Positions 1 through 15,400 of a stretch of 64,000 nucleotides of DNA are shown piece by piece. The position numbers and the translations under genes were made by a program. Source of the DNA: Bacteroidia bacterium (lineage in GTDB: Bacteria > Bacteroidota > Bacteroidia > M30B66); contig OZ257142.1 of NCBI GenBank assembly GCA_965279035.1, positions 3,008,001 through 3,072,000 on the forward strand, written 5' to 3'. A model generated the notes under the pieces. That model had not been told where the DNA came from. It ran no database searches and saw only the letters and a list, made by a program, of their open reading frames with translations. Position 1 is the first letter of the stretch. Every line of letters starts with the position of its first letter.

Positions 1-571
1 TGAAAGGGCCTTTCGGTTTCACTTTTCCGTGCTTTTTCACTTCGGCAAGAAACTCTTTATCCAAGCGATTATGGATAACACCTTGAATTGGTTTTTTAAA
101 TTGAAAACAACTTTTCAAATAATGTGAAACAAAAATCATTTCACGGGTGCAATGCTCCGAAATGAAACAAAGAAAACGGAATAATGAAGCGGGTTTTACA
201 CTTACTTCATGCATGTGCTGAATGGTATGAACACCCCGAATTTTCGCTGCTATTAATGCTCCAAATGGCAATAAGGTATTGACATGAACAGTATCATTCT
301 TTTTCAGTTTTACTAATAAAGACGTAAATAAATACACCTGAACATAGAGAAAATTCAAGAGTGTAATATATTTTTTCGGGCTCCAGGAATAGGGTAAATG
401 ATGATAGTGAACACCTTCAATATCCGACAGGAAGCCCTTGCTATTTGAAGTATACAGATGAACATCTTTTCCAGCTTCCACATAATCCAATAGTACCATT
501 GAAAATACAAGAGGACTTCCGCTGATGTCGTTTAATAAATGAATGCCGTATAGTTTTCCTGAATTTTTCAT
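1..571 (-). CDS. Glycosyltransferase family 4, N-terminal part (runs off window edge)
   Basis: Not in the ORF track. Manual translation from ATG at 571 gives MKNSGKLYGIHLLNDISGSPLVFSM...VHVNTLLPFGALIAAKIRGVHTIQHMHEVS..., open to position 1. ATGA overlap with the stop of the upstream GT; GT-B N-terminal pattern. Confidence 0.8.
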   Translation of the reverse strand, partial: MKNSGKLYGIHLLNDISGSPLVFSMVLLDYVEAGKDVHLYTSNSKGFLSDIEGVHYHHLPYSWSPKKYITLLNFLYVQVYLFTSLLVKLKKNDTVHVNTLLPFGALIAAKIRGVHTIQHMHEVSVKPASLFRFLCFISEHCTREMIFVSHYLKSCFQFKKPIQGVIHNRLDKEFLAEVKKHGKVKPKGPF

Positions 572-1890
572 TGTGAAATGGTATTTCCGGTTAAACTAAA
601 AAGGGTTTCATTTTGATCGGATGATGATTGGGCATTTTGAGTATTTCCAGCAACTTTACGATAGATAGCATACAGTTCGTCTGCCCGGTTTTCCCAAAGG
701 AAAGTGCTTAAAAATCGTTGCCGTGCTAATTGGCGTTCGTGCTGATAAAATGCTGAATCATGTTTCAATCGTAGGAGTTGATCTGCAAAGGCATTTTTCC
801 AATCAGCATTCGGATTATACTCTATTTTCAATGCTGAATCCGGATGAATAAATCGTCCTGGACCACAATTATCCCAACATAAAACTGGTACACCATAACT
901 CAATGCTTCTGCTACAACCATTCCTGCACCTTCGTGCGATGGGAAAAGAAAAACCGAAGTGGTTTGATAAATCTTTTTCAATTCATCCCTTGGAATCCAT
1001 TCGATAATTTCGAGTTGAGCAGAAATTCCAAGTGAGATTGCTAATGCTTTTAATTTGTGTTTTTCTGGTCCACTTCCAACGAGAATTAATTTAGCTTTAT
1101 GTTTTTCAGAATCTTTGAGTTGAATATAGAATTGATGAAATGCTTCTATCGTAATATCAAAACCTTTTAATCCAACAAAACGTCCAGCAGATAAAACAAT
1201 AAACTCATCTGTTTCAATCGGTTTATCAACTTCTTCGGATGCAACAGAAGGCAAAATGGAGTACTTATTTTTCAGTCCTAATTTATTCGCTGCTTCTTGA
1301 TGCATGCAGAAAATATGATCAGCCGAATTGCGTGTTATTTTTAAGAAAGGATCTAGGTACCAAAAAACATTTTTCAGAGTCCAAAGAAATCGATCCATAA
1401 TTAAATTCCGAGTCGAATAAAATGGACGAATAAATCCTTTAGGAATACGCGGATGATGTCCTACAGGTCCCCAAACAAAAGGCTTACGCCAAATCCAAAG
1501 AAAACTAGGAGTCCAATCGTTGTGGAAATTTAAATTATGAACCACATCCACTTGATTGCGCAATGATCGAAAATGAAGCGCTAATCCGAGTTGCCAGAAA
1601 TAATAATAAATGAGACTTAAAACGGGGCCTTTTTTCCAGAATAATAATTTCTTAGGCCAATCGTAATATCGGAATTCGATACGATCATAAAGTTCATTTA
1701 ATTCGGGATGTTCCTCTTGATATTTCTCAATTGCAGGACGATTGTTTTTCCGCGTGACAGCAATGACTTTGCAATTTTTTGCGATTTGCAAAACAAAATT
1801 CCAGCCCATACCATCTTCCGAACCTTTGAACGGATTGATGGCATAGGCAGAGGCAAACACAGTAATGTTCGGAGTAGAAGTGTTTATCAT
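568..1890 (-). CDS. Glycosyltransferase family 4
   Basis: N-terminal SAYAINPFKGSEDGMGWN, AGRFVGLKG and EX7E motif (FPSHEGAGMVVAEA), typical of GT4. Confidence 0.9.
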   Translation of the reverse strand: MINTSTPNITVFASAYAINPFKGSEDGMGWNFVLQIAKNCKVIAVTRKNNRPAIEKYQEEHPELNELYDRIEFRYYDWPKKLLFWKKGPVLSLIYYYFWQLGLALHFRSLRNQVDVVHNLNFHNDWTPSFLWIWRKPFVWGPVGHHPRIPKGFIRPFYSTRNLIMDRFLWTLKNVFWYLDPFLKITRNSADHIFCMHQEAANKLGLKNKYSILPSVASEEVDKPIETDEFIVLSAGRFVGLKGFDITIEAFHQFYIQLKDSEKHKAKLILVGSGPEKHKLKALAISLGISAQLEIIEWIPRDELKKIYQTTSVFLFPSHEGAGMVVAEALSYGVPVLCWDNCGPGRFIHPDSALKIEYNPNADWKNAFADQLLRLKHDSAFYQHERQLARQRFLSTFLWENRADELYAIYRKVAGNTQNAQSSSDQNETLFSLTGNTISQ

Positions 1891-2591
1891 GCAGCAGATT
1901 GTTGATCACGTTGTTTTAAAATCCGCGCAGGTACGCCGCCAATAACAGCATAGTCGGGAAAATGTCCGGTTACAACAGCTCCGGCAGCTATCACACAATG
2001 ATTTCCGATTGTTGCACCATCCAAGATGCTTACTTTAGAACCAATCCAACATCCCGAACCAATGACAATTCCTTTGCGCGTTACTCCTTGCAAACGGATA
2101 AGTTCTTCGGGATTTATAAATACATGGTTTTCGGGATGACAAGAAAAATATTGTCCAATGATACAGTCTGAACCAATCTTCAATCCTCCACCCCCACCTA
2201 AATAAGCAAACTCGCCCATTCCAACGCGATCGCCAATTTGAATTCCGATTCCAGGTTGATTAAGCGATGTTGATGCTACAATTTGACTATACGAACCAAT
2301 ACTTACGTTTTTACCAAGTTGAATACCTTGAGTACTTAAGGCTGAAAACAAAACATGGTCGCCAGCTTTAAGCAAACGACCATAGCGAAAGGAAGAAAAA
2401 TAACGAAAACGAACACCAGAACCGAGCATCATCATTTTAGGAGAACGCCCTCTGAGAAGGACTTTGAAACCTCTCAGTAATTGAAACACGGTTTGAATTC
2501 CAAAACTCCAAAGCATTTTGCCAGTTACGGCTTCATGCATGTTGAAGTCAGGATTTCGTACTTGAATGAGTCGAGTGTATAGGTGTTTCAT
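1887..2591 (-). CDS. Hexapeptide-repeat (LbH) polysaccharide O-acyltransferase
   Basis: Hexapeptide repeats (IGSDCIIG, IGSGCWIG, IGNHCVIAAGAVV, GGVPARIL). Start moved to the ATG at 2591 (MKHLYTR) to shorten the overlap with the upstream gene. Confidence 0.88.
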   Translation of the reverse strand: MKHLYTRLIQVRNPDFNMHEAVTGKMLWSFGIQTVFQLLRGFKVLLRGRSPKMMMLGSGVRFRYFSSFRYGRLLKAGDHVLFSALSTQGIQLGKNVSIGSYSQIVASTSLNQPGIGIQIGDRVGMGEFAYLGGGGGLKIGSDCIIGQYFSCHPENHVFINPEELIRLQGVTRKGIVIGSGCWIGSKVSILDGATIGNHCVIAAGAVVTGHFPDYAVIGGVPARILKQRDQQSAA

Positions 2592-5028
2592 TGCTTGTGT
2601 TACCCACCACATTACGCATGATGGATTCCACTGTTTCGCCAATTTCTACGTTTTCTATACATCGATACAGATGAGTATGATCTCCTTTTTGAAGACGAGC
2701 AAATAATTCGGTGTATTGTTTTGTGAGGCTGATAATAGTTTCTTTATCGAGCTCTTGTTTACGCTTTAAAATCACGTCTGGCGCAGCCCACAGGAAATAA
2801 TTAAATTCTGGTTTTTTAATAAATGGATAGAATTTTTCGGTGAATTTAGGATTTAATGCAATGTTACTTCTTCGACTATCATTGATAAAATCGAAGTAAT
2901 ATCGATCATAAAGCACAATGGTATTTTTTCTTACATAACGGAAATAAATAAACCACTGACCAAAAATATAATCGCAGAGGTAATAAGCAAAACGAATGAG
3001 TGATGAGATTTTACTTGAGTTTTGTCCTTGACGAGGTAAGGTAGAAACAGAGCGTTCTTCAGCTCCTTTTTTTCCATATTTCAAAGCACTGATAATAGGT
3101 AATATAGAAGGACGATGCCGAATAACAATAACGCGACGACGATGTTTCTTTTCGAGTTCTGTTTTAACAGCATCAATGATGGTTGATTTTCCAGCACCAT
3201 CAACTCCGCTGAATGTAATTAAGAATCCTTTTTCGCTGCGCATATTTTGAAGAATTTCGGTCCAATATCTGATTCTGTTTTTGATTTTAGAAAAACCTGA
3301 ATTTTCAGGACGATTTAAAACAGATTGAATAAGCTTCTTTTGCTCAATCTTATCAGGTTGATTGTGTGTCCAGATGAGATGTTTTTGAGGAATTAGAGCC
3401 CCATTGAGCGTGTAGAATAATAGCACATATTCCCTATTGGATTCTGGTGATGCATTGGAAATTCCATTGTGAGAAATGATTCTATTTTTAAGCACTTTCG
3501 AGGCATCCAAATATTCGATATGATTTCGTTTGAATTGAAATATGAAATCCAGATCGATTCTGCTACCATCCAATAAAATAACTTCCACCTGAAGCATTTT
3601 AATTAAATTCTTAATCACAACGTGTTTCACCCAAGAATGCTGTTTAAAAAAATCAATCATCTTTTGGGCATCAGCTCGGGTTGTGCACAAATCAATATCT
3701 GAATTTATTGGCGTATACGATAAATCGGGTAAATTGAATTTCAATAAGGCATATTCGAATGAAGAAATTTCCTTTTGAAAATCGATAAGGACAGATTTAC
3801 GAACTTCTTCATTTTGCACAGCAAGCAAATACTGAATGGATTGAGCCCAAGTTTCCAACAACCAGTTGACTTGCGTGTGCCATTTTTCTTGATTCGAATA
3901 TACATTCAGATAATAGGAACACACTCGATTGAGATAATGCATTTCGATGAGTGCCGGATGGATTTGATTGGATTTTAAAAACGAATCTACAGTAGGAATA
4001 GCAAGCATTTCCTGAATACGAGATCGGATTTGAGCAAAGGAAATTCGTTCAACTAAAATGGCTTGTTGATATACGTAATGAAAAAGATCTTCGAGAGGAA
4101 TTCCCTGTTCTTGATACATTTCCCAATCAAGAATCTGCAGTCGTTTGCCCAACATGCGGCAATTCCAAGGCGTGAAATCACCATGAACAGGAGCAGAATG
4201 AAACAAAGGATTGCTCAAACAAAATGATTGAAGTTTTGTAAAATCAACAATAAATTCAGGATTGAATTTTTTGGGATTTAAAGAAAATGTTTCAATCGTA
4301 GGTGATGTATTATTCAATCCACTCGAAACCCATTCAACAAAGCTCGAAACGTCCAATTGAGAAACTAAAGGTACTGATTTGGCAGATTCTCCTTTTAAAG
4401 AAGTTTGAGAAAAATTGGATGAATTATTTTTATTGATTGAAAAGGGATAATCAAAAAAACGTTCCGCCGAAGATGCTTTTAAATTGCTTAATGCTTTGTT
4501 CTCATTTCCGAGATTTTGTTTTGCAATTTCAGTGAAGGGGAATTTATCAAAAACAACATTTCCATTCTCATCGATTGTCCGCAAAATGGCTTTACGATTC
4601 GGTCCAACTGTACCAGTAAAAACTGCCCAAATTCGATTAGAAGGATCGCAATATTCAAAATCAGCTACTTGTATTATTCCTTGTTTAAAAAACCTGCCAA
4701 GTCCAAGTTTAAAGCTGAATTTTGCAGCTAAAACAAAGAGTTTACTTTTAAAATTTCCTTGATTATAAAAATGAATAAAATTAGGCTGAGAAGCATTTGC
4801 TGACCAAAGCCAACGGGTTGTTCCATCAGAATTATAAATACAATGAAAAGTGAGAATGGATTTGGAACTTGATTTTCGAATTAATCCAAAAGCTTTTAAT
4901 AATTCAATATCAAAATTTTTATCTTCTTTGAAAGAATTAATTGTTGTATCAAGTTTAACTTCAGAATGAAGTCTTTCATTTTCTGATGAAGCAGACATGT
5001 TAAATGAAAGAGATAGCGCCTTTTCCAT
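2548..5028 (-). CDS. Multidomain protein: APH/choline-kinase-like phosphotransferase + nucleotidyltransferase-like + thymidylate-kinase-like
   Basis: HGDFTPWN and ILDWE (Brenner/APH motifs, ~nt 4120-4185). SDIDL...IDLDF (Pol-beta-type Asp motif, ~nt 3545-3700). LITFSGVDGAGKST P-loop (~nt 3181-3220) and LYDRYYFD (TMPK DR motif). Confidence 0.75.
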   Translation of the reverse strand: MEKALSLSFNMSASSENERLHSEVKLDTTINSFKEDKNFDIELLKAFGLIRKSSSKSILTFHCIYNSDGTTRWLWSANASQPNFIHFYNQGNFKSKLFVLAAKFSFKLGLGRFFKQGIIQVADFEYCDPSNRIWAVFTGTVGPNRKAILRTIDENGNVVFDKFPFTEIAKQNLGNENKALSNLKASSAERFFDYPFSINKNNSSNFSQTSLKGESAKSVPLVSQLDVSSFVEWVSSGLNNTSPTIETFSLNPKKFNPEFIVDFTKLQSFCLSNPLFHSAPVHGDFTPWNCRMLGKRLQILDWEMYQEQGIPLEDLFHYVYQQAILVERISFAQIRSRIQEMLAIPTVDSFLKSNQIHPALIEMHYLNRVCSYYLNVYSNQEKWHTQVNWLLETWAQSIQYLLAVQNEEVRKSVLIDFQKEISSFEYALLKFNLPDLSYTPINSDIDLCTTRADAQKMIDFFKQHSWVKHVVIKNLIKMLQVEVILLDGSRIDLDFIFQFKRNHIEYLDASKVLKNRIISHNGISNASPESNREYVLLFYTLNGALIPQKHLIWTHNQPDKIEQKKLIQSVLNRPENSGFSKIKNRIRYWTEILQNMRSEKGFLITFSGVDGAGKSTIIDAVKTELEKKHRRRVIVIRHRPSILPIISALKYGKKGAEERSVSTLPRQGQNSSKISSLIRFAYYLCDYIFGQWFIYFRYVRKNTIVLYDRYYFDFINDSRRSNIALNPKFTEKFYPFIKKPEFNYFLWAAPDVILKRKQELDKETIISLTKQYTELFARLQKGDHTHLYRCIENVEIGETVESIMRNVVGNTSNETPIHSTHSSTKS

Positions 5029-6353
5029 CAGGTAGAACTAAGTTGAGATGATTGATCTGATTGAAGCCAGGCGTATTTCTTTTGTCGTATTTTCAATTTT
5101 ACACGTTCGCGAAGACTCAAGGTTTGAGGCAATTGCATGGTGATATAGAAAATTATTAATTGGTAAAATAAAATACCATAATTGGTTTCTCCAAAAATTC
5201 CAAACTCGGTAAAACTATTAATGAGAATTGGAATGAACATTCCTAAGATCATCAGTTTCTTATCGTTTACTTTCTCTGTAACAGTGGCTTTCAACGTAAA
5301 AAACAACTGAAATAAAACGATAGTAAATCCAATAAAACCTAAATTCATTAAAACTTGAATAAAGGTATTATGTGTCATTTGTCCGGCGTATGTGTGAACA
5401 CCTTGAAAATAGTCTTTATAGGCAATCCGCATAAAACCAAATCCGAGTAAAGGTTCTTTGGGCAAACCTTCTGTTATCAATGCTTGCCAAAAAGGTAAAC
5501 GACCAGTCATCGACATTACTTCATCTAAACCACCTGCATTTTCTTTTACAATCATTTTCTCCAATGCAAGCGGAATCGCCATAAAGGAAGAAGCATACAT
5601 GGCAATTTTTAATTTCACATTGGAGCTTTGTCGAATATGAAAAAATGCAATTAATAAAGCACCAATCGTACTTGATCGTGAACCAGTAAGAACCAATGCC
5701 CACAACAAAAGAAGCACTTTAATGATGGTCCATACTTTCCGATGATTTCGATATAAATTGAAAATTAGACAGGAAATTCCAACAGCGCAAAGCATTCCAA
5801 GTTCGTTTGGATTCATGAAAAATCCACCCAAACGCGCTTCTTCACCACCATGAGTAAGTCGGTAAAAATCATCTGGATTGATATACATGCCCACTAAGAA
5901 TATCAAAATCATCAGAAATACAGCATTACCTGCAACATGATATAATTTAATTCCACAATCGGGGAAATATCCATCGAGTAATATGAAACACTGAACAAAG
6001 AAGAAAGCGAAGATTAAACCTTCAAAATCCATGATCCACTGTAATGAGCTATAGCCCAAATTCGTAGACCAGAGAAAGGAAATTAATCCTAATGCTAAAT
6101 AGGCAGAATATAAAAACGGGCTTAATCCAAACTTCCAAGATATCTTGCTGGAAGCGCCATGAGCAACTATGTTGTTACGCACCCAAATGATTAACATGGT
6201 CATGCTAAATCGGGTGATGATTTTAATAATACGGGTGATATTGATGTTTTCGCTCCAAGTGAAAAATCCGGCGAGTTTAATAAACAAGATTATAAGCAGC
6301 AAGGTTTGCAGCCGTTTAAAAAATCTCAGTTTATCCTCTTCGGAACGTATCAT
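5028..6353 (-). CDS. wzy: Polysaccharide polymerase / O-antigen ligase family (Wzy_C)
   Basis: Many TM segments; RLGG.FMNPN, LTGSRS, TGR..FW, GFGF and THN motifs; lies within a wza-wzc-wzx operon. Confidence 0.8.
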   Translation of the reverse strand: MIRSEEDKLRFFKRLQTLLLIILFIKLAGFFTWSENINITRIIKIITRFSMTMLIIWVRNNIVAHGASSKISWKFGLSPFLYSAYLALGLISFLWSTNLGYSSLQWIMDFEGLIFAFFFVQCFILLDGYFPDCGIKLYHVAGNAVFLMILIFLVGMYINPDDFYRLTHGGEEARLGGFFMNPNELGMLCAVGISCLIFNLYRNHRKVWTIIKVLLLLWALVLTGSRSSTIGALLIAFFHIRQSSNVKLKIAMYASSFMAIPLALEKMIVKENAGGLDEVMSMTGRLPFWQALITEGLPKEPLLGFGFMRIAYKDYFQGVHTYAGQMTHNTFIQVLMNLGFIGFTIVLFQLFFTLKATVTEKVNDKKLMILGMFIPILINSFTEFGIFGETNYGILFYQLIIFYITMQLPQTLSLRERVKLKIRQKKYAWLQSDQSSQLSST

Positions 6354-7474
6354 ATACTCAAAGCACGTTGATAAATGGAATTAAAATCCTTGAGTATTTT
6401 TTTCCAGTTGAAGTTCGATTCAACCATAGCTCGAGAACGAATTTGAAGTTCTTGAGGAGCAGTATGAATGTACATTCTGTAGGAAGCAATGAGTCCTTCC
6501 AGCATTTCAATTTTGTTCGTATCCGAAATAACAATACCAGCTTTAGACTGACGGATTTCATCACCTAAATTAGTTGCTTCAGAAATTAAACACGGTATTC
6601 CCATAGAAGCTGCTTCGAGCACGGCTGTAGGCAGACCTTCATTACGACTTGGATGAACAAATAGATTCAATTGTGCAAGTAAACCATCCTTTTCGGCACC
6701 AAAGCGACTACCCCAAAACGTAATTTTTTCTTTAATCCCAAGTGTTTCTGCGCGTTGCTCAAGTGAGGTACGTTCGGGACCATCACCAATTATCCAAAGA
6801 TGGGCTGTAGGAACTTCATTCAGAAAGAGTGTAAAAGCGTCAAGTAAAACATCCAAACCTTTGGTATATACATCAACCCGTCCACAAAAACCAATGAGGT
6901 AATTGGAAGTCGCAGAATTTAAAATAGCTGCATGTTCGCCAAATAATTCAAATCCATAAGGAACACGTTGTATTTGAATGCCTTTTAATAAATGATTGAG
7001 TCCATCTGATTCGCTTTTACCTAATACGTGAACAATGGCAGCTTTTTGCAACATCGATTGTTCAAAGAGGCGAAAATAAATGGCTTTCGACATTCCACTT
7101 TTTCTCCAAGCGATGCGGTTGTAGCTTCCATGAGGAGTGAAAATAAATTTCTTACCATGCGCAGCTAAATAATTAGCGATTGAATAAAAAACGGGAATAA
7201 ATCCACCATGCAAATGAAAAACAACATCATCCGAAGTTTCCAAAATTGCAAGCTTCATGAATTCGGGAATAAAAAACGGAAATCTATACTTTTTAAAAAG
7301 TACAGTTTTAAAATTCCGTTCAGGATAATCGTGTTCAAGAGAATTGGAAATACCCCAAACCTGAACAGGGATGCCTGCTTTAGATTGTTCAGTAGCTAAA
7401 TTATAGACTACTTTATTCACCCCATTCATACGCTGAGGATTTACTTTTCCTAATGCGATATGGATAATTTCCAT
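6350..7474 (-). CDS. Glycosyltransferase family 4
   Basis: FCGRVDVYTKGLD and PSRNEGLPTAVLEA (EX7E). Confidence 0.92.
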   Translation of the reverse strand: MEIIHIALGKVNPQRMNGVNKVVYNLATEQSKAGIPVQVWGISNSLEHDYPERNFKTVLFKKYRFPFFIPEFMKLAILETSDDVVFHLHGGFIPVFYSIANYLAAHGKKFIFTPHGSYNRIAWRKSGMSKAIYFRLFEQSMLQKAAIVHVLGKSESDGLNHLLKGIQIQRVPYGFELFGEHAAILNSATSNYLIGFCGRVDVYTKGLDVLLDAFTLFLNEVPTAHLWIIGDGPERTSLEQRAETLGIKEKITFWGSRFGAEKDGLLAQLNLFVHPSRNEGLPTAVLEAASMGIPCLISEATNLGDEIRQSKAGIVISDTNKIEMLEGLIASYRMYIHTAPQELQIRSRAMVESNFNWKKILKDFNSIYQRALSI

Positions 7475-8685
7475 GCGAAATGTTTTTTACGGTAAAGGAA
7501 GATGATCCAGATACTTGTCATTAATATTTGACTGAGCATCATTCCAGCAATGATACCGGCCGATTGATAAGTCCGAATAAGAAAACTTGCAGAAATTAAA
7601 ATCAGAACTAATGCAGCAGCATGTGCAATAAAATAAACATGATTATATCCTGAAGCACGAATTAAAACTCGAATTGGGTATGCAATTAGAATGAGGAAAT
7701 ACAATAAAGCAATCCAAAGATGAAGAGGTTCTGTTATTTCTTGAGGACTAATTAATTTAGCTAAGAATGGGAAGAACAAAGCTAAAAGCACCAATAATCC
7801 AGCAACAGGTAATAAAAAAGCTGCAGAGATTCTTAAAACAAATGAAGCTTTATCACCTGAACGTCCATTCCATGCCGCCACTTTAGGAACTGCGTAATTT
7901 TCGTATGCTTGAAGGAAAATATTTAACAATCCAAATAAATACTGTGTTAAACGAAGCAGTCCGAGTGCAGATGCGCTTATCCATGCTCCAGCAGCCATCA
8001 ATAAATAGTTGGAACTACTCCATTGAACTACCGAAGTAATCACCATCCATCCTGCTGTGGAAGCTGTTTTCTTGATGTAATATCCTTTCATTCGTCTTCC
8101 CGATGATGTAGGTTTGAGGATGAAAAGGAAAAGTAATCCAGTTAAAGAGGATCCTCCTAAAATGAGAAGAGCTTGTGCAGGGTGAGTAGGAGATAAAATT
8201 AAAATTGCCCCTCCAAATAAAAGCACATTTAATCCATCAATTATTAAAAGATTTAATCCTGGATAAAGGATAATACAGAGTTTACGAAGCAAATCAGATA
8301 TAAGCCAAATAAAAGAGACTAAAAATAATATTCCAAAATGCAAAGAAGGATTGTAAATGATTTGAAATAAAAACTCAAATATGATTGATAATATTATTGC
8401 AGAAGGAAATGCTAAAAATAGAATGGTTCCGGTGTATTTTCTTCTGGAAGTTTCTCCTAGTTTACCAAGGAAAACTTGTGCAGGTTGAATAAATAATGCT
8501 TGTTGAAATGACATCAATAACATCATTCCCAAATAAACTAATGCATAAGTTCCGTATCCTTCGAGTTGTAATTTCCAAGCAAGTAAAAAATTACTAAGAA
8601 AACCGGCAGCACTAATGAGCGATTGATCAGCTATAAGAAGCAATCGTGCATCTAAATTCCTCAGCCATGTGTATAAATTTTTCAT
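7450..8685 (-). CDS. wzx: Wzx-like polysaccharide flippase
   Basis: Highly hydrophobic 411 aa with DQSLIS...YGTYAL N-terminus typical of the MOP/Wzx family; operon context. Confidence 0.7.
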   Translation of the reverse strand: MKNLYTWLRNLDARLLLIADQSLISAAGFLSNFLLAWKLQLEGYGTYALVYLGMMLLMSFQQALFIQPAQVFLGKLGETSRRKYTGTILFLAFPSAIILSIIFEFLFQIIYNPSLHFGILFLVSFIWLISDLLRKLCIILYPGLNLLIIDGLNVLLFGGAILILSPTHPAQALLILGGSSLTGLLFLFILKPTSSGRRMKGYYIKKTASTAGWMVITSVVQWSSSNYLLMAAGAWISASALGLLRLTQYLFGLLNIFLQAYENYAVPKVAAWNGRSGDKASFVLRISAAFLLPVAGLLVLLALFFPFLAKLISPQEITEPLHLWIALLYFLILIAYPIRVLIRASGYNHVYFIAHAAALVLILISASFLIRTYQSAGIIAGMMLSQILMTSIWIIFLYRKKHFAWKLSISH

Positions 8686-10853
8686 CCTACAGATGGCTTT
8701 AATTTATGTTCAAATCGCAGTATTCTCTTACCCAAATCAAGGATTTTATTCAAACTAATTAATTTGGGATAATAACTTGAGCGATTGAGAACAATCTCTA
8801 ATTTGAGTCCCTGTAAGGTTTCGCTAATCTCGTTTGCTTGATCAACTTCTGTAGCTTTTGAATTTAGTGAGTCGATAACCAAAATGGTGCTTGAACAAGC
8901 AGATAAAATCAAAAACGATCTTGCCTCATGATCGAGTGTTCCTGGATCACAAAGAACACAATCGTACTGATTCAATTCATCCGATTTCCAAGTTTGATCT
9001 TCGTTTAATAAATGATCAATGAAAGCAGCATCATACAATTTTTTTGAATTTGAGTAAATAGTATTTTCCTCTGCATAAATAACGAGGACTTTTTTACCCA
9101 TTATTTGAAGAGCTGTGGCAATTCGATCGGTTATGAATTCCTTTTGATTCCCTGTGCGAACAGCTGTTAAACAAAGTATTTTATCTTTTCCAAAATATTC
9201 GTTTAACCATAAAACGGATGCCCATTGAGAAAAGAATAATTGTTCACTCATTCTATTCTTGAAAAATGGTATTGATTTAATAAAAGGCAATAAAGTTCTT
9301 TTCTGAATAAATTCTTCATCACCAATTGGAAATCGAACTTTAAATAATATGATGGAAAGTAATGTTCCAAATAGAAATGTCAAAAATGCAGCTAAAGCTT
9401 TGAAAAGACTTGGACTTGGCGATGTAGGAGTTGTAGGAACTTCTCCAAAATCGATAATTCTATGAAAGGACATTTTTGCAGCACGCGCAATCTCAGCTTC
9501 CGTTTTTTTCTCATGAAGGAAACGAAAAATAGATTCATTCATTTGGTTGCTTCGTTCCAATCCACCTAATGTTCGTTCACGTGTTGGTAGACCTACAAAA
9601 GAAGCTTCTGCATCCGCAATTTCTTCTTCTAAACTGCTTAATTTTATTTGTGTATTTGTTTTAGTATTATTAATACTCTCTTTAATATATTCTATAAGAT
9701 CATGAATATTCTCATCGATAATTTTCACCTTTTCATGATCAGGAGTATATTTTATGAGCATTTCTTTTTTCTCTGCTCTATATGTTTTTATCTTCTTTAC
9801 TAATTCGGTAGAGAGCAGGTCGTTAAACGCTTCAAAGTTCGGAGCTAGTTCTAAAAAGCGATCATCACCTTGATGTATATAATGATTAAGTGTATCAATT
9901 GCTGCCAAATTCATTCGGATATTGACTTGTTGTTTTTTCAAATCAGAAATCTTCCGTAAATCGGTTTCTGTTTCCTGGCGGATATTGATGATATTCTTAG
10001 AATTTCGATAAAATTCAATATTATTTTCAGAGCTATCTAATTCGTGAGCATATTGCTTCAATTGCTTGTCTAGAAATGTAACTGTAGTATCAGCAGTTAA
10101 ATATTTCGTTTCTTCAAAATCGCGGATATAACAGCTTGCAACTAGATTTACAACATCGTGAGCTTTTTGAGGAACAGGCGATTTATAACTTAATCGAATA
10201 ACTGGAACGTCTTTATCCATCGCCAATACATCCAAATTACTTCGAATTTCGGACACTAAACGTGACTTAGATCTTAAAACAAAACGGTAATTATCATCGA
10301 CTTGCATGCTAGGGCGTTTCTTCAAAAGCTCCTCATTTTTTAGAATGAGAATTTCAGAATTACCAACAGTAAGAGATCGACCTAATTTGCATTTAAACTG
10401 CTTTTCACCAGGTGTTGTTAAACTGTAATCATTTCCATGAATAATTAATTGGAATGGTCGATCTAACAATGAAGAATCATTAATTACCGTGAAAATTTTC
10501 AAAGGTGATTGATCGTACAATTCAGTCGAATGAATATCACCTACACGATAAATAATATAGGATTCAGGAAGATTGGCAGCAACTTTTTCAAGAATTGAAT
10601 TCGATTTAATTAATTCGATTTCAGCCGAAATTTTATTTTCAGTGGCGAAGTAATCAATATCATCGTAAAGATGCGAACCCGTTGGTCCTTGCTGATTATC
10701 GGCTAATTTAATTCGAGCGGTACTTTCGTATACTGGTGTAACATAGGAAACATATTTACCTGCAAGCCAAATTCCCAAGAAAACTAAAACCAACGTGAAA
10801 GGAAGTCCTCTCAAGAATGGTCGTAATGTGGAATTCATTTCTTTCGAAAACAT
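8682..10853 (-). CDS. wzc: Wzc/GumC-like polysaccharide co-polymerase with degenerate BY-kinase domain
   Basis: N-terminal TM + PVYESTA, coiled-coil periplasmic region, PxxPxSP + second TM, then a cytoplasmic domain with altered Walker motifs. Confidence 0.85.
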   Translation of the reverse strand: MFSKEMNSTLRPFLRGLPFTLVLVFLGIWLAGKYVSYVTPVYESTARIKLADNQQGPTGSHLYDDIDYFATENKISAEIELIKSNSILEKVAANLPESYIIYRVGDIHSTELYDQSPLKIFTVINDSSLLDRPFQLIIHGNDYSLTTPGEKQFKCKLGRSLTVGNSEILILKNEELLKKRPSMQVDDNYRFVLRSKSRLVSEIRSNLDVLAMDKDVPVIRLSYKSPVPQKAHDVVNLVASCYIRDFEETKYLTADTTVTFLDKQLKQYAHELDSSENNIEFYRNSKNIINIRQETETDLRKISDLKKQQVNIRMNLAAIDTLNHYIHQGDDRFLELAPNFEAFNDLLSTELVKKIKTYRAEKKEMLIKYTPDHEKVKIIDENIHDLIEYIKESINNTKTNTQIKLSSLEEEIADAEASFVGLPTRERTLGGLERSNQMNESIFRFLHEKKTEAEIARAAKMSFHRIIDFGEVPTTPTSPSPSLFKALAAFLTFLFGTLLSIILFKVRFPIGDEEFIQKRTLLPFIKSIPFFKNRMSEQLFFSQWASVLWLNEYFGKDKILCLTAVRTGNQKEFITDRIATALQIMGKKVLVIYAEENTIYSNSKKLYDAAFIDHLLNEDQTWKSDELNQYDCVLCDPGTLDHEARSFLILSACSSTILVIDSLNSKATEVDQANEISETLQGLKLEIVLNRSSYYPKLISLNKILDLGKRILRFEHKLKPSVG

Positions 10854-10855
10854 GG

Positions 10856-11605
10856 CTATTTAAATAATTGTGTTAAAACAACAATGGTGGTTAAAACACT
10901 AGTAACAGTCATGATATTGGCCGAACGTTTATCCCAAACTTTTCCTTTACGCGATGGAACATAAATGATATCTCCCGGTTTTACCGAAAGTTTATTCAAA
11001 TAGGCTTGATCTGGATCAGTTAAATCGACAGTGAGGGCGCGCAACGTATCGTTAACTACACGTGCAATTTGAATATTCCGTTTATCCGCATAAAAATCGA
11101 AATCGCCCGCTCTAGCTAAGCACTCGGCGAGAGTGTTTTGTTCTTTCTCCAAATTCATAAATCCGGGATTTTTCATTTCTCCCAAAATTGAAATTTGACG
11201 ATTTAAAACACGTAATCGAATAACAGGATTTACGATTGATTTCGCATAAATTTTTGTCAAGGAATCTTCTGCTTGACTCACTGTCATTCCTGCAATGTGG
11301 ACTTGTCCAACACGTGGTAAAGCAGCATAACCATCAGGATCAATTAACACCCAACGACCATATACTTCGTTTGCATTGTAAATTCCATATACCGAACCCA
11401 AACTCAAATCATCATGTCCTTGAATACTCAAGTTGATTTTATCGTCGGATTTAAGAATGTGTTCGTTTGTTGATGCTTTGAAAAACGCAGAACTATCTGC
11501 TGATGATTTCACTTCCGGATAACGAAGATTTTGTGTCCTACATGATGGAAACATCATAAGAACAAACAAAAATAGTAGAATACTCAGGAAGGAAAGGTGT
11601 TTCAT
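10856..11605 (-). CDS. wza: Polysaccharide export lipoprotein (Wza/Poly_export + SLBB)
   Basis: Lipobox (FPSC); IDPDGYAALPRVGQVHIAGMT, ILGEMKNPG and PGDIIYVP motifs. Confidence 0.88.
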   Translation of the reverse strand: MKHLSFLSILLFLFVLMMFPSCRTQNLRYPEVKSSADSSAFFKASTNEHILKSDDKINLSIQGHDDLSLGSVYGIYNANEVYGRWVLIDPDGYAALPRVGQVHIAGMTVSQAEDSLTKIYAKSIVNPVIRLRVLNRQISILGEMKNPGFMNLEKEQNTLAECLARAGDFDFYADKRNIQIARVVNDTLRALTVDLTDPDQAYLNKLSVKPGDIIYVPSRKGKVWDKRSANIMTVTSVLTTIVVLTQLFK

Positions 11606-11607
11606 GC

Positions 11608-12060
11608 TTAAAACATTTTGGTAATAGAAGACAAAATGCCAGCAAAACTGCGCTTACGACGAAGTTGAATTTCTCTCAAGTAATTGTTCAAACGTGTAAT
11701 TACTTCTGTTAAATGATCAAGGTCATTATCGTCTTTTATGATATAGTCGAAAGCTCCGTATTTAAGAGCGTCCACAGCTGTTTTCATGTCTTTCTGAGCC
11801 GACAAATAAATCACAGGAATATCAGGATTCTGACGTTTAATTTTTTTCAATACTTCCAATCCATCAAAAGGCTGCATCGAATGGTCGATAATAACGGCAT
11901 CCGGTTCATCCATTAATTGATTTAAGAAATCCTGACTATCTTCAAATAAACGAACTTCTTTCACGCCAATATTGCGAATATGTCGCTCGTACATCGCAAG
12001 GCAATGAGGATCATCGTCGAGTAAAAAAATACTGTTCAGAATTTGCGTATTCGTTTTCAT
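11608..12060 (-). CDS. Receiver-only response regulator (NtrC-like REC, no output domain)
   Basis: LLDDD, IIDHSM (phospho-Asp), LSA and GAFDYIIK; 150 aa with only a short C-terminal helix. Confidence 0.88.
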   Translation of the reverse strand: MKTNTQILNSIFLLDDDPHCLAMYERHIRNIGVKEVRLFEDSQDFLNQLMDEPDAVIIDHSMQPFDGLEVLKKIKRQNPDIPVIYLSAQKDMKTAVDALKYGAFDYIIKDDNDLDHLTEVITRLNNYLREIQLRRKRSFAGILSSITKMF

Positions 12061-12499: not shown

Positions 12500-15400
12500 T
12501 TAAAAATTCTCATCTAAATACGTCTTCTCAGTCCCTGGTAAGGTTTTTAGAATTTCCCATCCACCATTTTTATTCTGCTTTTCAATTACATAAAATCCAA
12601 CTCCGTTTGGCCCCCAGCTTTGATATGGTGTCCAGAATAATTGATTATATACTTCATTATATGCTTCCACTTTTAATACAACATTATCACCCTCTACACC
12701 AGCGCCTGCTTCAACTTTACAAATGTTGCGTGCAAAAACCTGATATTGATATTTGGTTTCATTCACTTCCACTTGTTCATCCATGTAATAGGTTTGATCA
12801 ACCGGCAATTCTGCCAATAATACATACGGTTCTCCTTCAGCAGCGCGGTAAATTCCATATCCAGTAATTTTATCTAAAAGCGTATCAGGTGGTGCCCATT
12901 CCGTTAAAATCATCGAATTGTTTACCACTGTTGATCGTCCAATATTGACGTACTGGTTGATAAATGGATTTGATATTACTGCTGGCAAATCATAATCGGA
13001 TGAAGATTCTAAGTGGAGAATTCCATCCAGCTCTTGAGCTAAAACTTCATATTTGTATTGCACAGGACAAACCACCGAACTATCAACAAAATGGGTTGTT
13101 AAACCATCAACTGAACCTACGTTCAATAATGTACCAGTTCCAATTTCAGTTCTCAAAACGATATAGCTGTGTGGAAGTCGTCCTACATAAGGCGTCCAAT
13201 TCACATCAATGAGATTATTGAGTTGAGTGATTGCTTGTATATTGATCGTGCAGTGTTCTTGCAAGCTGTCGATATTTACTTTTCTACCACAGATATCAAC
13301 CGCTTCAACCTTATAACAATACACCGAATCCTGCGTGTTTACTTGGGTATCGTAAAAGCTTAATTGATGCGAATCATTGATAGTTGTAATTAATGAGTAG
13401 GTAGAAATACCGGAACTTCTTCGTAAAATGTTGTAATGAGAAAAATGTTCAGCAAAATTTTCAATCCATTCTATGATAATGGAATCAAGTCCTTCAACAG
13501 AAACGCGAAGTATTGGACTGATTGGTGGAGGAATGCTATCGAAAACTTCAACCGCCGATGGATAAGTGATCGAATCAGTACATCCATTTAAATTTTGAAC
13601 ATAAAGCGAAACATCATAAAATCCAGGATTTCCAAACGAATAGGTTGAATCGGGATTGGTAAATGTTGCTGTATCGTTAAAGACTAGTTCGTAGCTAGGA
13701 GAAAGCAAACTTGAACTGGTATTTTCAAATTCAACCAATAATGGTAAACAACCAGTGCCTTGCATGATAGATAAAGAAGCATCAGGAACGAGCAAAGCAT
13801 CCACCGAATCAACACGAAGTGTATCATAGCAACCCAATGAATTTTGAGTAACCAATTCGATATAATATTCACCCGCAGAGAAATAGGTATGTGAAGGAGT
13901 TGAATCGTTTAAGAATGCTGATCCATCGCCGAAATTCCAAGAATAATTTACTGCATCAGAAGTGAGATTATGAACGATTGGACTAAAAGGAGTACAACCA
14001 CTATCCGATTCTAGTGTGAATTGAGCATTTGGACGTTCGTATACTTGAAAAGGAATTGTGCTCGAATTGAAAGCAGAACAACCTACTGTATCGCGAGAGA
14101 ACAAGGTAATTACGTATGAACCCGGTTCGTCGTATAAGAATACCGGATTTTGATCAGTGCTCGACGTTCCTTCACCAAAGTTCCACTCCCACTCTACTGC
14201 ATTGAGCGATTGATCTTCAAACTGAAGTGGAACACCAACACATCCCGAGGCATTGGAAATTGTAAAGGAAGTTGCAGGTCCTAAAACTGTGATATAATCA
14301 GGACGAACAATGGTATCGGAACAACCAAATGCAGAAGTGACAATTAATTGAATAGAATAAATTCCTGGTGAATCGTAAAGTTTAACTGGATTTTGAAGCG
14401 AGGAACCACTATTGTCACCAAAATCCCAATCCCAAGAAACGGCAGTACCTGTACTATCATAAAATTCAACAATAGAAGGAGCACATGCAGCTGGTGAAGG
14501 TGAAACAAAATTGGCATGTATACTACTCACCCGAATAGGTGCAACCCAAGACGTATCCGAACAACCCGAAGGCGTAATTCCGACAACATAGGGACTGAAA
14601 AGTCCATCTTGTAAATAGGTATATGAAAATGCGGAGTCGGTAAAAATAGCTCCATCTCCGGTGTGCCATTCAAATTGTCCCTGCAAATTACTTTGTGCAA
14701 AAAACGAAACGGGCAATGGATTACATGAGCCAATATATGTTGCTGTTTGTTGAAGATGATAGATTAATACTCCCGGTTTAACAATCGAATCGGTACAACC
14801 AAAAGGAGTTGTAATGGTTAGTTTAACCGAATCGGCGGGTTCTTGAGAAAAGGTGATGAGCGGATTTTGTTCGGTAGATGTAATTCCGTTTCCAAAATCC
14901 CAAAACCAGGATTGAGCTTCTAAACTTGAATCGGAAAACTGAGCAATAGCAGGTAAACAGTTTTGATCTTGTGTAAAGCTAAAATCGGGATAGGCATTGT
15001 ACACGTGAATAGGATCGAAAAGAAGTGTGTCTTTACATGTTGTTATCCATGTTGTTGTAGCAATCATCATTAATCCACTGTATGTTCCAGTATCGGCATA
15101 CGCCAAATTCAATGTATCAGAATTGGTGAGGAAAGTAAGATTATCGTAATAATTCACATACGTTAAAGGAGCGGGAGAAATGATCTGTACTTCATGAGGA
15201 GCACAACCATCCCAATTCCCATTGATAATTACATCCAATTTGGGAGTTGCATAAACAATGTGTTGTGTGAGTGTATTATTATAAACACAACCATCCGAAG
15301 TCGTAATTTGAAGATGAATGGTATACGAACCTGTTGAATCATATTGATAAACTGGCTCAGCTAAATTCGAAGTTCCTCCATCACCAAACTGCCAGAAAAA

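Follow-up and report, generated by a model that had tools for sequence, protein, structure and literature searches.

The window analysed here is a stretch of 64,000 nucleotides (nt) from a Bacteroidia bacterium (positions 3,008,001 to 3,072,000 of contig OZ257142.1, GenBank assembly GCA_965279035.1), and on its reverse strand, within an operon for exopolysaccharide synthesis, it carries a gene in which three enzyme domains are fused (Table 1). The product of this gene, hereafter the fusion, is soluble and cytoplasmic, consists of three modules that look catalytically intact, referred to as the N, middle (M) and C domains, and is a fixed part of one conserved Bacteroidota Wzx/Wzy exopolysaccharide operon. 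The single open reading frame (ORF) of 826 amino acids (aa) described in the original prediction is present, and the six motifs noted in it were all found where they had been placed, namely HGDFTPWN at residues 282–289 (positions 4162–4185), DWE at 301–303 (4120–4128), SDIDL at 443–447 (3688–3702), DLD at 492–494 (3547–3555), GVDGAGKST at 608–616 (3181–3207) and DRY at 708–710 (2899–2907). The protein is without a transmembrane segment (maximum KD19 1.33, with no KD19 window above 1.6), and the lack of any hydrophobic segment places it in the cytoplasm.

The gene had been described as overlapping both wzy and the gene for an acyltransferase. Its ATG and the stop codon of wzy have one base in common (TGATG), an arrangement of translational coupling. 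The longest ORF of the acyltransferase, a hexapeptide acetyltransferase, begins with a TTG at 2642, 51 nt 5' of the start supported by orthologues, and would overlap the fusion by 95 nt. Alignment to 14 orthologues places the start at the ATG at 2591, and the overlap shrinks to 44 nt, which fall in the unconserved, disordered tail of the fusion. The overlap with wzy is thus retained, as a single base, and that with the acetyltransferase holds as 44 nt but not as the 95 nt of the longest ORF.

All three folds proposed earlier, a choline-kinase/APH-like kinase, a pol-beta-type nucleotidyltransferase and a thymidylate kinase (TMK), are supported; a fold check run on the middle and C domains found the predicted nucleotidyltransferase and TMK folds in both. 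The full-length AlphaFold2 model had a mean predicted local distance difference test score (pLDDT) of 87.6 and a predicted template-modelling score of 0.80, with disorder limited to residues 1–33 and 811–826. For the N domain (residues 43–406), VIA-align gave Plasmodium falciparum choline kinase (6yxs, Z 14.7, root-mean-square deviation (rmsd) 4.1, 274 residues aligned), LicA (4r77, Z 14.3), APH(4)-Ia (Z 14.0) and NahK (4ocj, Z 12.6). Kinases of the APH/choline-kinase type made up about 30 of the best 50 rows in the structural search of the fusion, and Foldseek matched the N domain to LicA with E 3.3e-6. The Pfam model APH (PF01636) matches 26 of 46 family members and PF01633 one of the 46, and the fusion of the window matches no Pfam kinase model at E≤0.01. 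By fold and motifs, the N domain belongs to the APH/choline-kinase superfamily, in no curated family. It shares with LicA and the APH superfamily the bilobal kinase fold (Z 14.0–14.7) and a conserved HxDxxxxN loop, DxE metal site, beta3 lysine and alphaC glutamate, but it is only about 10–12% identical to them, is fused to two further enzymes and carries an extra conserved N-terminal hairpin motif, NPDGSxRWxWP.

The middle domain was not covered by the first two structural searches, and residues 408–600 were folded alone with 62 sequences, which gave a model with pLDDT 96.5. The best VIA-align match was a putative nucleotidyltransferase of Helicobacter pylori of the JHP933 type (4ok0, Z 10.1, rmsd 4.4, 141 residues aligned), followed by TM1012 (2ewr, Z 8.2), ANT(2'') (4xje, Z 7.9), MenT1 (Z 7.9), MenT4 (Z 7.6) and LnuA (Z 6.9), and the eight Foldseek matches at E≤1e-3 were all nucleotidyltransferases (MenT1, TUT7). 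An hhalign comparison with 13 PF14907 domains from Bacteroidota genomes gave Prob 91.9% and E 7e-7. In it, the DxD strand and third acidic residue of the fusion fall in register with DxD and [ED]LH of that family (NTP_transf_5, 'uncharacterised nucleotidyltransferase'). When an independent full-length profile was compared with PF14907, the middle region alone aligned (Prob 73), and two unrelated control alignments gave Prob 0.2% and 0.5%. The PF14907 hidden Markov model itself was matched by 5 of the 62 members, with a best E of 0.013. The middle domain resembles PF14907, JHP933, TM1012, ANT(2''), LnuA and MenT in fold (Z 10.1–6.9) and in its DxD and third acid, but differs from PF14907 and the minimal nucleotidyltransferases in that the usual hG[GS] motif before the DxD strand is absent and in that it is always fused to a P-loop kinase. 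K430, 14 residues before the DxD, is comparable to the KG of PF14907. In the protein atlas, unnamed clusters were met, and the nearest named families, PF14907 (0.83) and PF10706 (0.82), serve as leads only. Plant SAG101 (E 0.014), the sole match of the middle-domain profile among sequences of solved structures, was rejected as implausible.

The C domain (residues 600–812) aligned with the TMK of Thermus thermophilus (5x7j, Z 18.8, rmsd 2.9, 180 residues aligned) and with that of S. tokodaii (2plr, Z 17.5). It has the fold of TMK, its P-loop (GxDGxGKST), DRY and basic residues in the lid region, but it scores below both curated cut-offs (26.1 bits against 27 for Pfam Thymidylate_kin, PF02223; 26.7 bits against 83.25 for TIGR00041, in a match confined to the P-loop), has a long and very conserved insert and is never free-standing in the fusion family. 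At E≤0.01, Thymidylate_kin matches all 46 family members. The insert (RHRPSLLPILSAWKYGK...LPRQGxN...LLRFxYYYxDY) lies at the region where TMK binds thymidine monophosphate (dTMP), and the domain retains the elements by which nucleoside monophosphate (NMP) kinases hold their phosphate acceptor. Pfam APS_kinase matches one of the 46 members, and no adenylyl-sulfate (APS) kinase appears in the best 50 structural rows. That the C domain is a housekeeping dTMP kinase fused by chance was rejected, since the fusion is conserved and bound to its operon, and four of five carrier genomes have a separate TMK-like frame (208–388 aa, matching the whole model). In the Bacteroidota genomes searched (L105–L108), the putative housekeeping dTMP kinases scored only 25–43 bits with TIGR00041, against the cut-off of 83, and Bacteroides thetaiotaomicron is not among the listed control genomes matching either TMK model.

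The fusion is conserved far beyond chance. In an alignment of 46 sequences of 30–58% identity, all catalytic-looking motif residues are invariant. Among the proteins read from 80 genomic loci, the counts per residue are as follows. In the N domain, K162 is conserved in 67/67, E176 in 66/68, D284 and N289 each in 69/69, and D301 and E303 each in 68/68; in the middle domain, D444 and D446 each in 74/75, D494 in 74/74 and K430 in 72/74; and in the C domain, K614 in 75/76, R639 in 76/76, and D708 and R709 each in 75/75. The C domain is the most conserved part of the protein and is basic, with a net charge of +13.

The fusion does not stand as a one-off but belongs to a large family. A word-indexed search returned 876 proteins at E≤1e-3 among 8000 candidates scored, the best 120 being nearly all of 770–890 aa with at least 90% query coverage, and an exhaustive search of representatives at 50% identity returned 3826, 1454 and 346 matches at E≤1e-3, 1e-10 and 1e-30, respectively. 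In the databases these homologues are named 'thymidylate kinase', 'phosphotransferase', 'nucleoside/nucleotide kinase family protein' or 'hypothetical'. The family is almost entirely from Bacteroidota (e.g., Spirosoma, Fibrella, Pedobacter, Chryseobacterium, Flavobacterium and Chitinophagaceae). The locus scan, with one genome per species, gave 598 pattern matches, of which 115 were confirmed as relatives; 80 loci were retained. Two of the loci came from bins labelled Gammaproteobacteria. One (L042) has the Bacteroidota gene order and a protein with a type-IX sorting domain, which suggests mis-binning or transfer. The other (L080, a Methylococcaceae bin) carries, among GT4 genes, the C-type and N-type parts in reversed order, a thymidylate-kinase-like gene coming before an APH-like one, and the N-terminal part of its ORF, compared with the middle-domain profile, gave Prob 12.

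A remote relative of the C domain, YghT, is found in Escherichia coli K-12 (NC_000913.3, 3131341–3134823), where yghQ, which encodes a flippase-like protein, is followed by the paralogous thymidylate-kinase-like P-loop genes yghR, yghS and yghT. YghR, YghS and YghT share with the C domain the P-loop GxDG[ST]GKST, and all lie beside the flippase-like gene; YghT also has the LPxxG, LLRF, DRY and RK elements (hhalign Prob 80, E 1.4e-5, 135 columns). They differ from the fusion in being single-domain proteins of 230–252 aa with no nucleotidyltransferase or APH-like part, and the similarity is weak. No functional study of yghQ, yghR, yghS or yghT is evident from the titles and abstracts of the papers listed in a search for these genes.

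The fused N-M-C arrangement was found in 59 ORFs. At 10 loci, mostly of Saprospiraceae, N and M-C are encoded by two neighbouring genes, with the break at a single point, corresponding to about residues 405–410 of the query. Several of the split-gene junctions are 4-nt overlaps and others are spacers of 80–240 nt, and this variety at one split point argues that the split is not a sequencing artefact. Proteins of about 434 aa with the M-C arrangement are abundant in metagenomes (668 matches at E≤1e-3 among 1948 candidates), and at four loci the M-C half stands alone with upstream DNA present. All four genomes concerned encode a stand-alone homologue of the N domain elsewhere (273–491 aa, 25–36% identity to the split-form kinase), in two of them beside operon genes, directly after GT4-Wzy in one and before Wza in the other. 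Among homologues of 100–391 aa, no free-standing middle domain was found, and no relatives of the N, M or C domain were found beside PF14907 in 15 loci fetched with 1.5 kb flanks. The nucleotidyltransferase and the P-loop kinase always stay fused, and the first kinase can be a separate gene.

The genetic setting was determined by Pfam searches of the neighbours and, for the other loci, by our own ORF calling and phmmer searches with the window proteins. Pfam bears out the Wzy polysaccharide operon that had been proposed (Table 1), and both fused and split homologues occupy the same glycan locus. The conserved gene order is (hybrid histidine kinase)-receiver-Wza-Wzc-like-Wzx-like-GT4-Wzy-fusion, followed by hexapeptide acetyltransferase-GT4-GT4-DUF1972 glycosyltransferase-WecA-like transferase-(sigma-54 activator), and the window holds it from the receiver gene through the second downstream GT4 gene, which is clipped by the window edge. 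By NCBIfam, the DUF1972 enzyme is a Cps2T-like beta-1,4-rhamnosyltransferase (182 bits) and the last gene is WecA-like, both below cut-off. The Wzx-like protein of the window itself has no Pfam match. The next gene downstream of the fusion encodes the acetyltransferase at 54 and GT4b at 17 of 76 loci; GT4b lies at most three genes downstream in 67 of 76, and Wzy is the immediate upstream neighbour in 40 of 68. In the Wzc-like protein, TGNQKE replaces the Walker A motif, and of 40 orthologues only one has GxxxxGK[ST] within its last 260 residues. No Rfam family matches within the window, promoter- and terminator-like sites are not commoner in it than in shuffles, and a sigma-54 promoter consensus has no match 5' of the operon (15 matches observed in the window against 25.8 expected).

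Table 1. Genes of the exopolysaccharide operon in the window and domains of the fusion, with positions counted from the first letter of the window.
Feature	Positions	Strand	Basis and remarks
Three-domain fusion gene	2548..5028	-	826-aa ORF; full-length homologues 770-910 aa
N domain (residues 34-405), choline-kinase/APH-like kinase	3814..4929	-	Structure match and motifs
Middle domain (residues 410-598), minimal pol-beta-type nucleotidyltransferase, remote PF14907 kin	3235..3801	-	Structure and hhalign
C domain (residues 599-812), thymidylate-kinase-like P-loop kinase	2593..3234	-	Structure and Pfam
GT4 (GT4c)	2..571	-	Clipped by window edge; Pfam Glyco_transf_4 below cut-off; synteny
GT4 (GT4b)	568..1890	-	Pfam Glycos_transf_1
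Hexapeptide O-acetyltransferase, WbbJ/WcaF-like	1887..2591	-	Pfam Hexapep; NCBIfam WbbJ 73.9 bits, below cut-off
Wzy-type polymerase	5028..6353	-	Pfam Wzy_C, E 1.1e-14
GT4 (GT4a)	6350..7474	-	Pfam; synteny
Wzx-like flippase, multi-pass membrane protein	7450..8685	-	KD19 maximum 2.63; Chryseobacterium orthologue matches Polysacc_synt_3
Wzc-like co-polymerase, degenerate C-terminal ATPase domain	8682..10853	-	Pfam Wzz, GNVR
Wza-like outer-membrane export protein	10856..11605	-	Pfam Poly_export, SLBB_2
Stand-alone receiver-domain response regulator, first gene of the operon	11608..12060	-	Pfam Response_reg; synteny

The bond between the fusion and this operon was followed in 201 Bacteroidota genomes drawn evenly from the phylum, including the genome on which the sample was centred. 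The fusion is present in 8 of the 201. At E≤1e-84, GT4b was found in exactly those eight genomes, adjoining the fusion, with one weaker match (5e-48) in a ninth genome, and Wzy was found in five genomes, all of them fusion carriers, at 41–68% identity. Because GT4b and Wzy are found with the fusion in the sampled genomes, the fusion, patchy as it is in the phylum, behaves as a core gene within its operon and not as an optional extra. The high conservation of Wzy suggests, from sequence, one conserved structure of the repeat unit across families. Two sampled genomes hold decayed relics of the fusion (L103, 8239–10143, 634 aa; L104, 7854–9650, 598 aa), which have lost the P-loop kinase or keep it in degenerate form and show substitutions at catalytic residues of N-M, with HGA..AN, NWEN and no DxD in the L104 relic and ExD in place of DxD in that of L103. 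Both still lie between the receiver gene and GT4b.

Based on this anatomy, we tentatively propose a route from kinase to nucleotidyl transfer to second kinase that would lead to an activated donor or substituent carrying phosphate, destined for the repeat unit, a possibility that we favour but hold short of probable. The acceptor would be one small hydroxylated precursor or a hydroxyl on the repeat unit linked to undecaprenyl diphosphate. The N domain would phosphorylate the hydroxyl with ATP, the middle domain would join a nucleotide to that phosphate or cap it, and a further phosphate would come from the C domain, relatives of which act as kinases on a phosphate or nucleotide acceptor. This product may then be built into the repeat unit by GT4b and the acetyltransferase before flipping and polymerisation. 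The order of the domains, N-M-C, is the proposed order of the reactions. The recycling of released NMP, also part of the original prediction, finds no support in these results. The sequential route is favoured by the presence of two ATP-dependent phosphotransferases and one nucleotidyltransferase, all active-looking, by the link to the glycosyltransferase and acetyltransferase genes, and by the insert of the C domain.

Several observations weigh against this route. A recognised phospho-substituent transferase (LicD, CDP-alcohol phosphotransferase, TagF-like or sulfotransferase-like) was not found by Pfam in the operon genes scanned, and to our knowledge, the alcohol-phosphate and sugar-1-phosphate nucleotidyltransferases described so far use folds other than pol-beta. 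The C domain resembles dTMP kinase and not APS kinase, so that 3'-phosphorylation like that giving 3'-phosphoadenylyl sulfate is not specifically indicated. Besides, YghT, its remote relative, lies beside the flippase-like YghQ in E. coli, which hints at a more generic role, and in the sample the operon was never seen without the fusion, which fits a core step better than an optional decoration.

The proposed route has partial parallels in known systems. The LicA-LicC-LicD system differs in that the middle domain of the fusion is of the pol-beta type and not of the LicC type (GlmU/RmlA-like), and LicD or NTP_transferase models found no match in any operon gene scanned. The enzymes of the O-methyl-phosphoramidate pathway of Campylobacter jejuni have folds that differ from those of the fusion, and the likeness is one of scheme. 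In that pathway, glutamine, ATP and CTP are converted by Cj1415–Cj1418 to CDP-phosphoramidate 3'-phosphate, used for a capsule substituent (PMC11800397). A kinase (Cj1418), nucleotidyl transfer (Cj1416) and a second kinase (Cj1415) lead to an activated donor for a surface polysaccharide, as in our proposal, but the steps are carried by separate proteins, and the pathway includes a hydrolase step without a counterpart in the fusion. In lasso-peptide tailoring, a pair is formed by the kinase PsmK, which (poly)phosphorylates serine, and PsmN, a member of an 'uncharacterised nucleotidyltransferase' family modelled on ANT(2''), which is needed to place a hexose on the phosphate and is dead as a DxD mutant (PMC6993621; reviewed in PMC9266682). 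Here also, a kinase and then an enzyme of a nucleotidyltransferase family act on the same hydroxyl (PMC6993621), and ANT(2''), the template of the PsmN model, is a top structural match of the middle domain of the fusion. Unlike in our proposal, the substrate in the PsmK/PsmN system is a peptide, and the kinase is HPr-kinase-like. A family of phosphonate gene clusters is reported in which a thymidylate kinase and an enzyme of PF14907 flank phosphoenolpyruvate mutase (10.1101/2021.04.07.438883).

A bolder extension of the sequential route, which we regard as unlikely, is that the fusion carries out by itself all three steps towards a new kind of activated donor, or towards a substituent linked through pyrophosphate or a nucleotide, which would define a conserved but chemically undescribed exopolysaccharide of Bacteroidota, and that its M-C half, with YghR, YghS and YghT as distant kin, would represent a widespread, unrecognised step of Wzx/Wzy assembly. 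The folds and the type of operon are known; what is undescribed is the arrangement of three domains in one protein, the constant pairing of M with C and the part played in this operon. In agreement with the original prediction, which knew of no characterised enzyme with the three-domain layout, none turned up in full-text literature searches, and such searches for the family, the operon and PF14907 found no functional study. The present evidence does not amount to a new principle, but it defines a clear and testable gap in polysaccharide biochemistry, in which three familiar folds, combined as in no studied enzyme, are fixed in a highly conserved polysaccharide operon of environmental Bacteroidota. 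The operon is among the most conserved polysaccharide operons of these bacteria, with a Wzy, normally very variable, that keeps the identity given above. Once solved, the reaction would probably prove to be a new glycan modification or to yield an activated donor of a new kind; the answer would assign PF14907-like nucleotidyltransferases a function and might explain YghR, YghS and YghT of E. coli. The naturally split and kinase-less variants are ready-made constructs for dissecting the steps.

We consider it improbable that the fusion instead serves sugar salvage, with the N domain as an anomeric sugar kinase (NahK/AmgK-like), the middle domain making a nucleoside-diphosphate sugar and the C domain supplying or regenerating the nucleotide, so as to feed the glycosyltransferases of the operon. 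The structural match to NahK, an N-acetylhexosamine 1-kinase, speaks for it, but choline and antibiotic kinases outscore NahK. The core operon encodes five glycosyltransferases and no sugar-nucleotide synthesis gene (Pfam/NCBIfam), and its Cps2T-like rhamnosyltransferase, below cut-off as noted, suggests the use of a dTDP-sugar, a plausible link to a thymidylate-kinase-like domain. However, a dTMP kinase yields dTDP and not the required dTTP, and no sugar-1-phosphate nucleotidyltransferase with a pol-beta fold is known, while the nearest structural relatives of the middle domain nucleotidylate hydroxyls of antibiotics or tRNA.

A similarly doubtful case is that of a generic ATP- or NTP-dependent step on the lipid carrier or on a lipid-linked intermediate, coupled to flipping by Wzx and carried out by the M-C module, with the N kinase as an add-on. 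The M-C module is indeed the inseparable core of the family, its C domain combines the highest conservation with the basic charge, the operon is never without the fusion in the sampled genomes, and in E. coli YghT (Prob 80) lies with YghR and YghS beside the flippase-like YghQ. On the other hand, the tightest neighbours of the fusion are the acetyltransferase and GT4b and not the flippase, the protein is without a membrane segment, the similarity to YghT is weak and comes from one sequence, and most known Wzx/Wzy systems work without such a protein.

Quite improbable, in our view, is a regulatory enzyme that phosphorylates or nucleotidylates a protein of the assembly machine or makes a signal nucleotide, and so replaces the tyrosine-kinase cycle of the degenerate Wzc-like protein. 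The canonical Walker A is missing in 39 of 40 Wzc-like orthologues, a Wzb-type phosphatase was not found in the operon by Pfam, and two-component and sigma-54 regulators are encoded within the operon itself. Weak matches to kinase models occur in some family members (RIO1 in 4 of 46, TCAD9 in 7 of 46), and alarmone synthetases and CD-NTases are among the lower structural matches of the middle domain (Z 5–6.4). The best structural matches, however, are small-molecule kinases and nucleotidyltransferases acting on small molecules or tRNA, and the thymidylate-kinase fold has no known protein-kinase member.

WbdD of E. coli O9a is likewise a kinase domain within an O-polysaccharide system, but chain capping of its kind, which had also been suggested for the fusion, fits poorly, as WbdD serves pathways that depend on an ABC transporter and has a methyltransferase and a coiled-coil ruler besides its kinase, whereas the fusion lies in an operon with Wzx, Wzy, Wzc-like and Wza proteins and itself shows no methyltransferase domain by Pfam.

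Next to the operon, large proteins recur. A very large secreted protein is encoded just upstream of the fusion in several loci (after Wzy where the flank reaches), for example at L015 (3225–9749), L034 (5143–9768), L042 (4979–9136) and L012 (2000–3766). These proteins carry FG-GAP/ASPIC-UnbV repeats and DUF7619, and a type-IX-secretion sorting domain is present in three of the four scanned. In the window, a protein of 1936 aa (12500–18310, reverse strand) is encoded just upstream of the operon, with repeated units that look PKD-like by eye.

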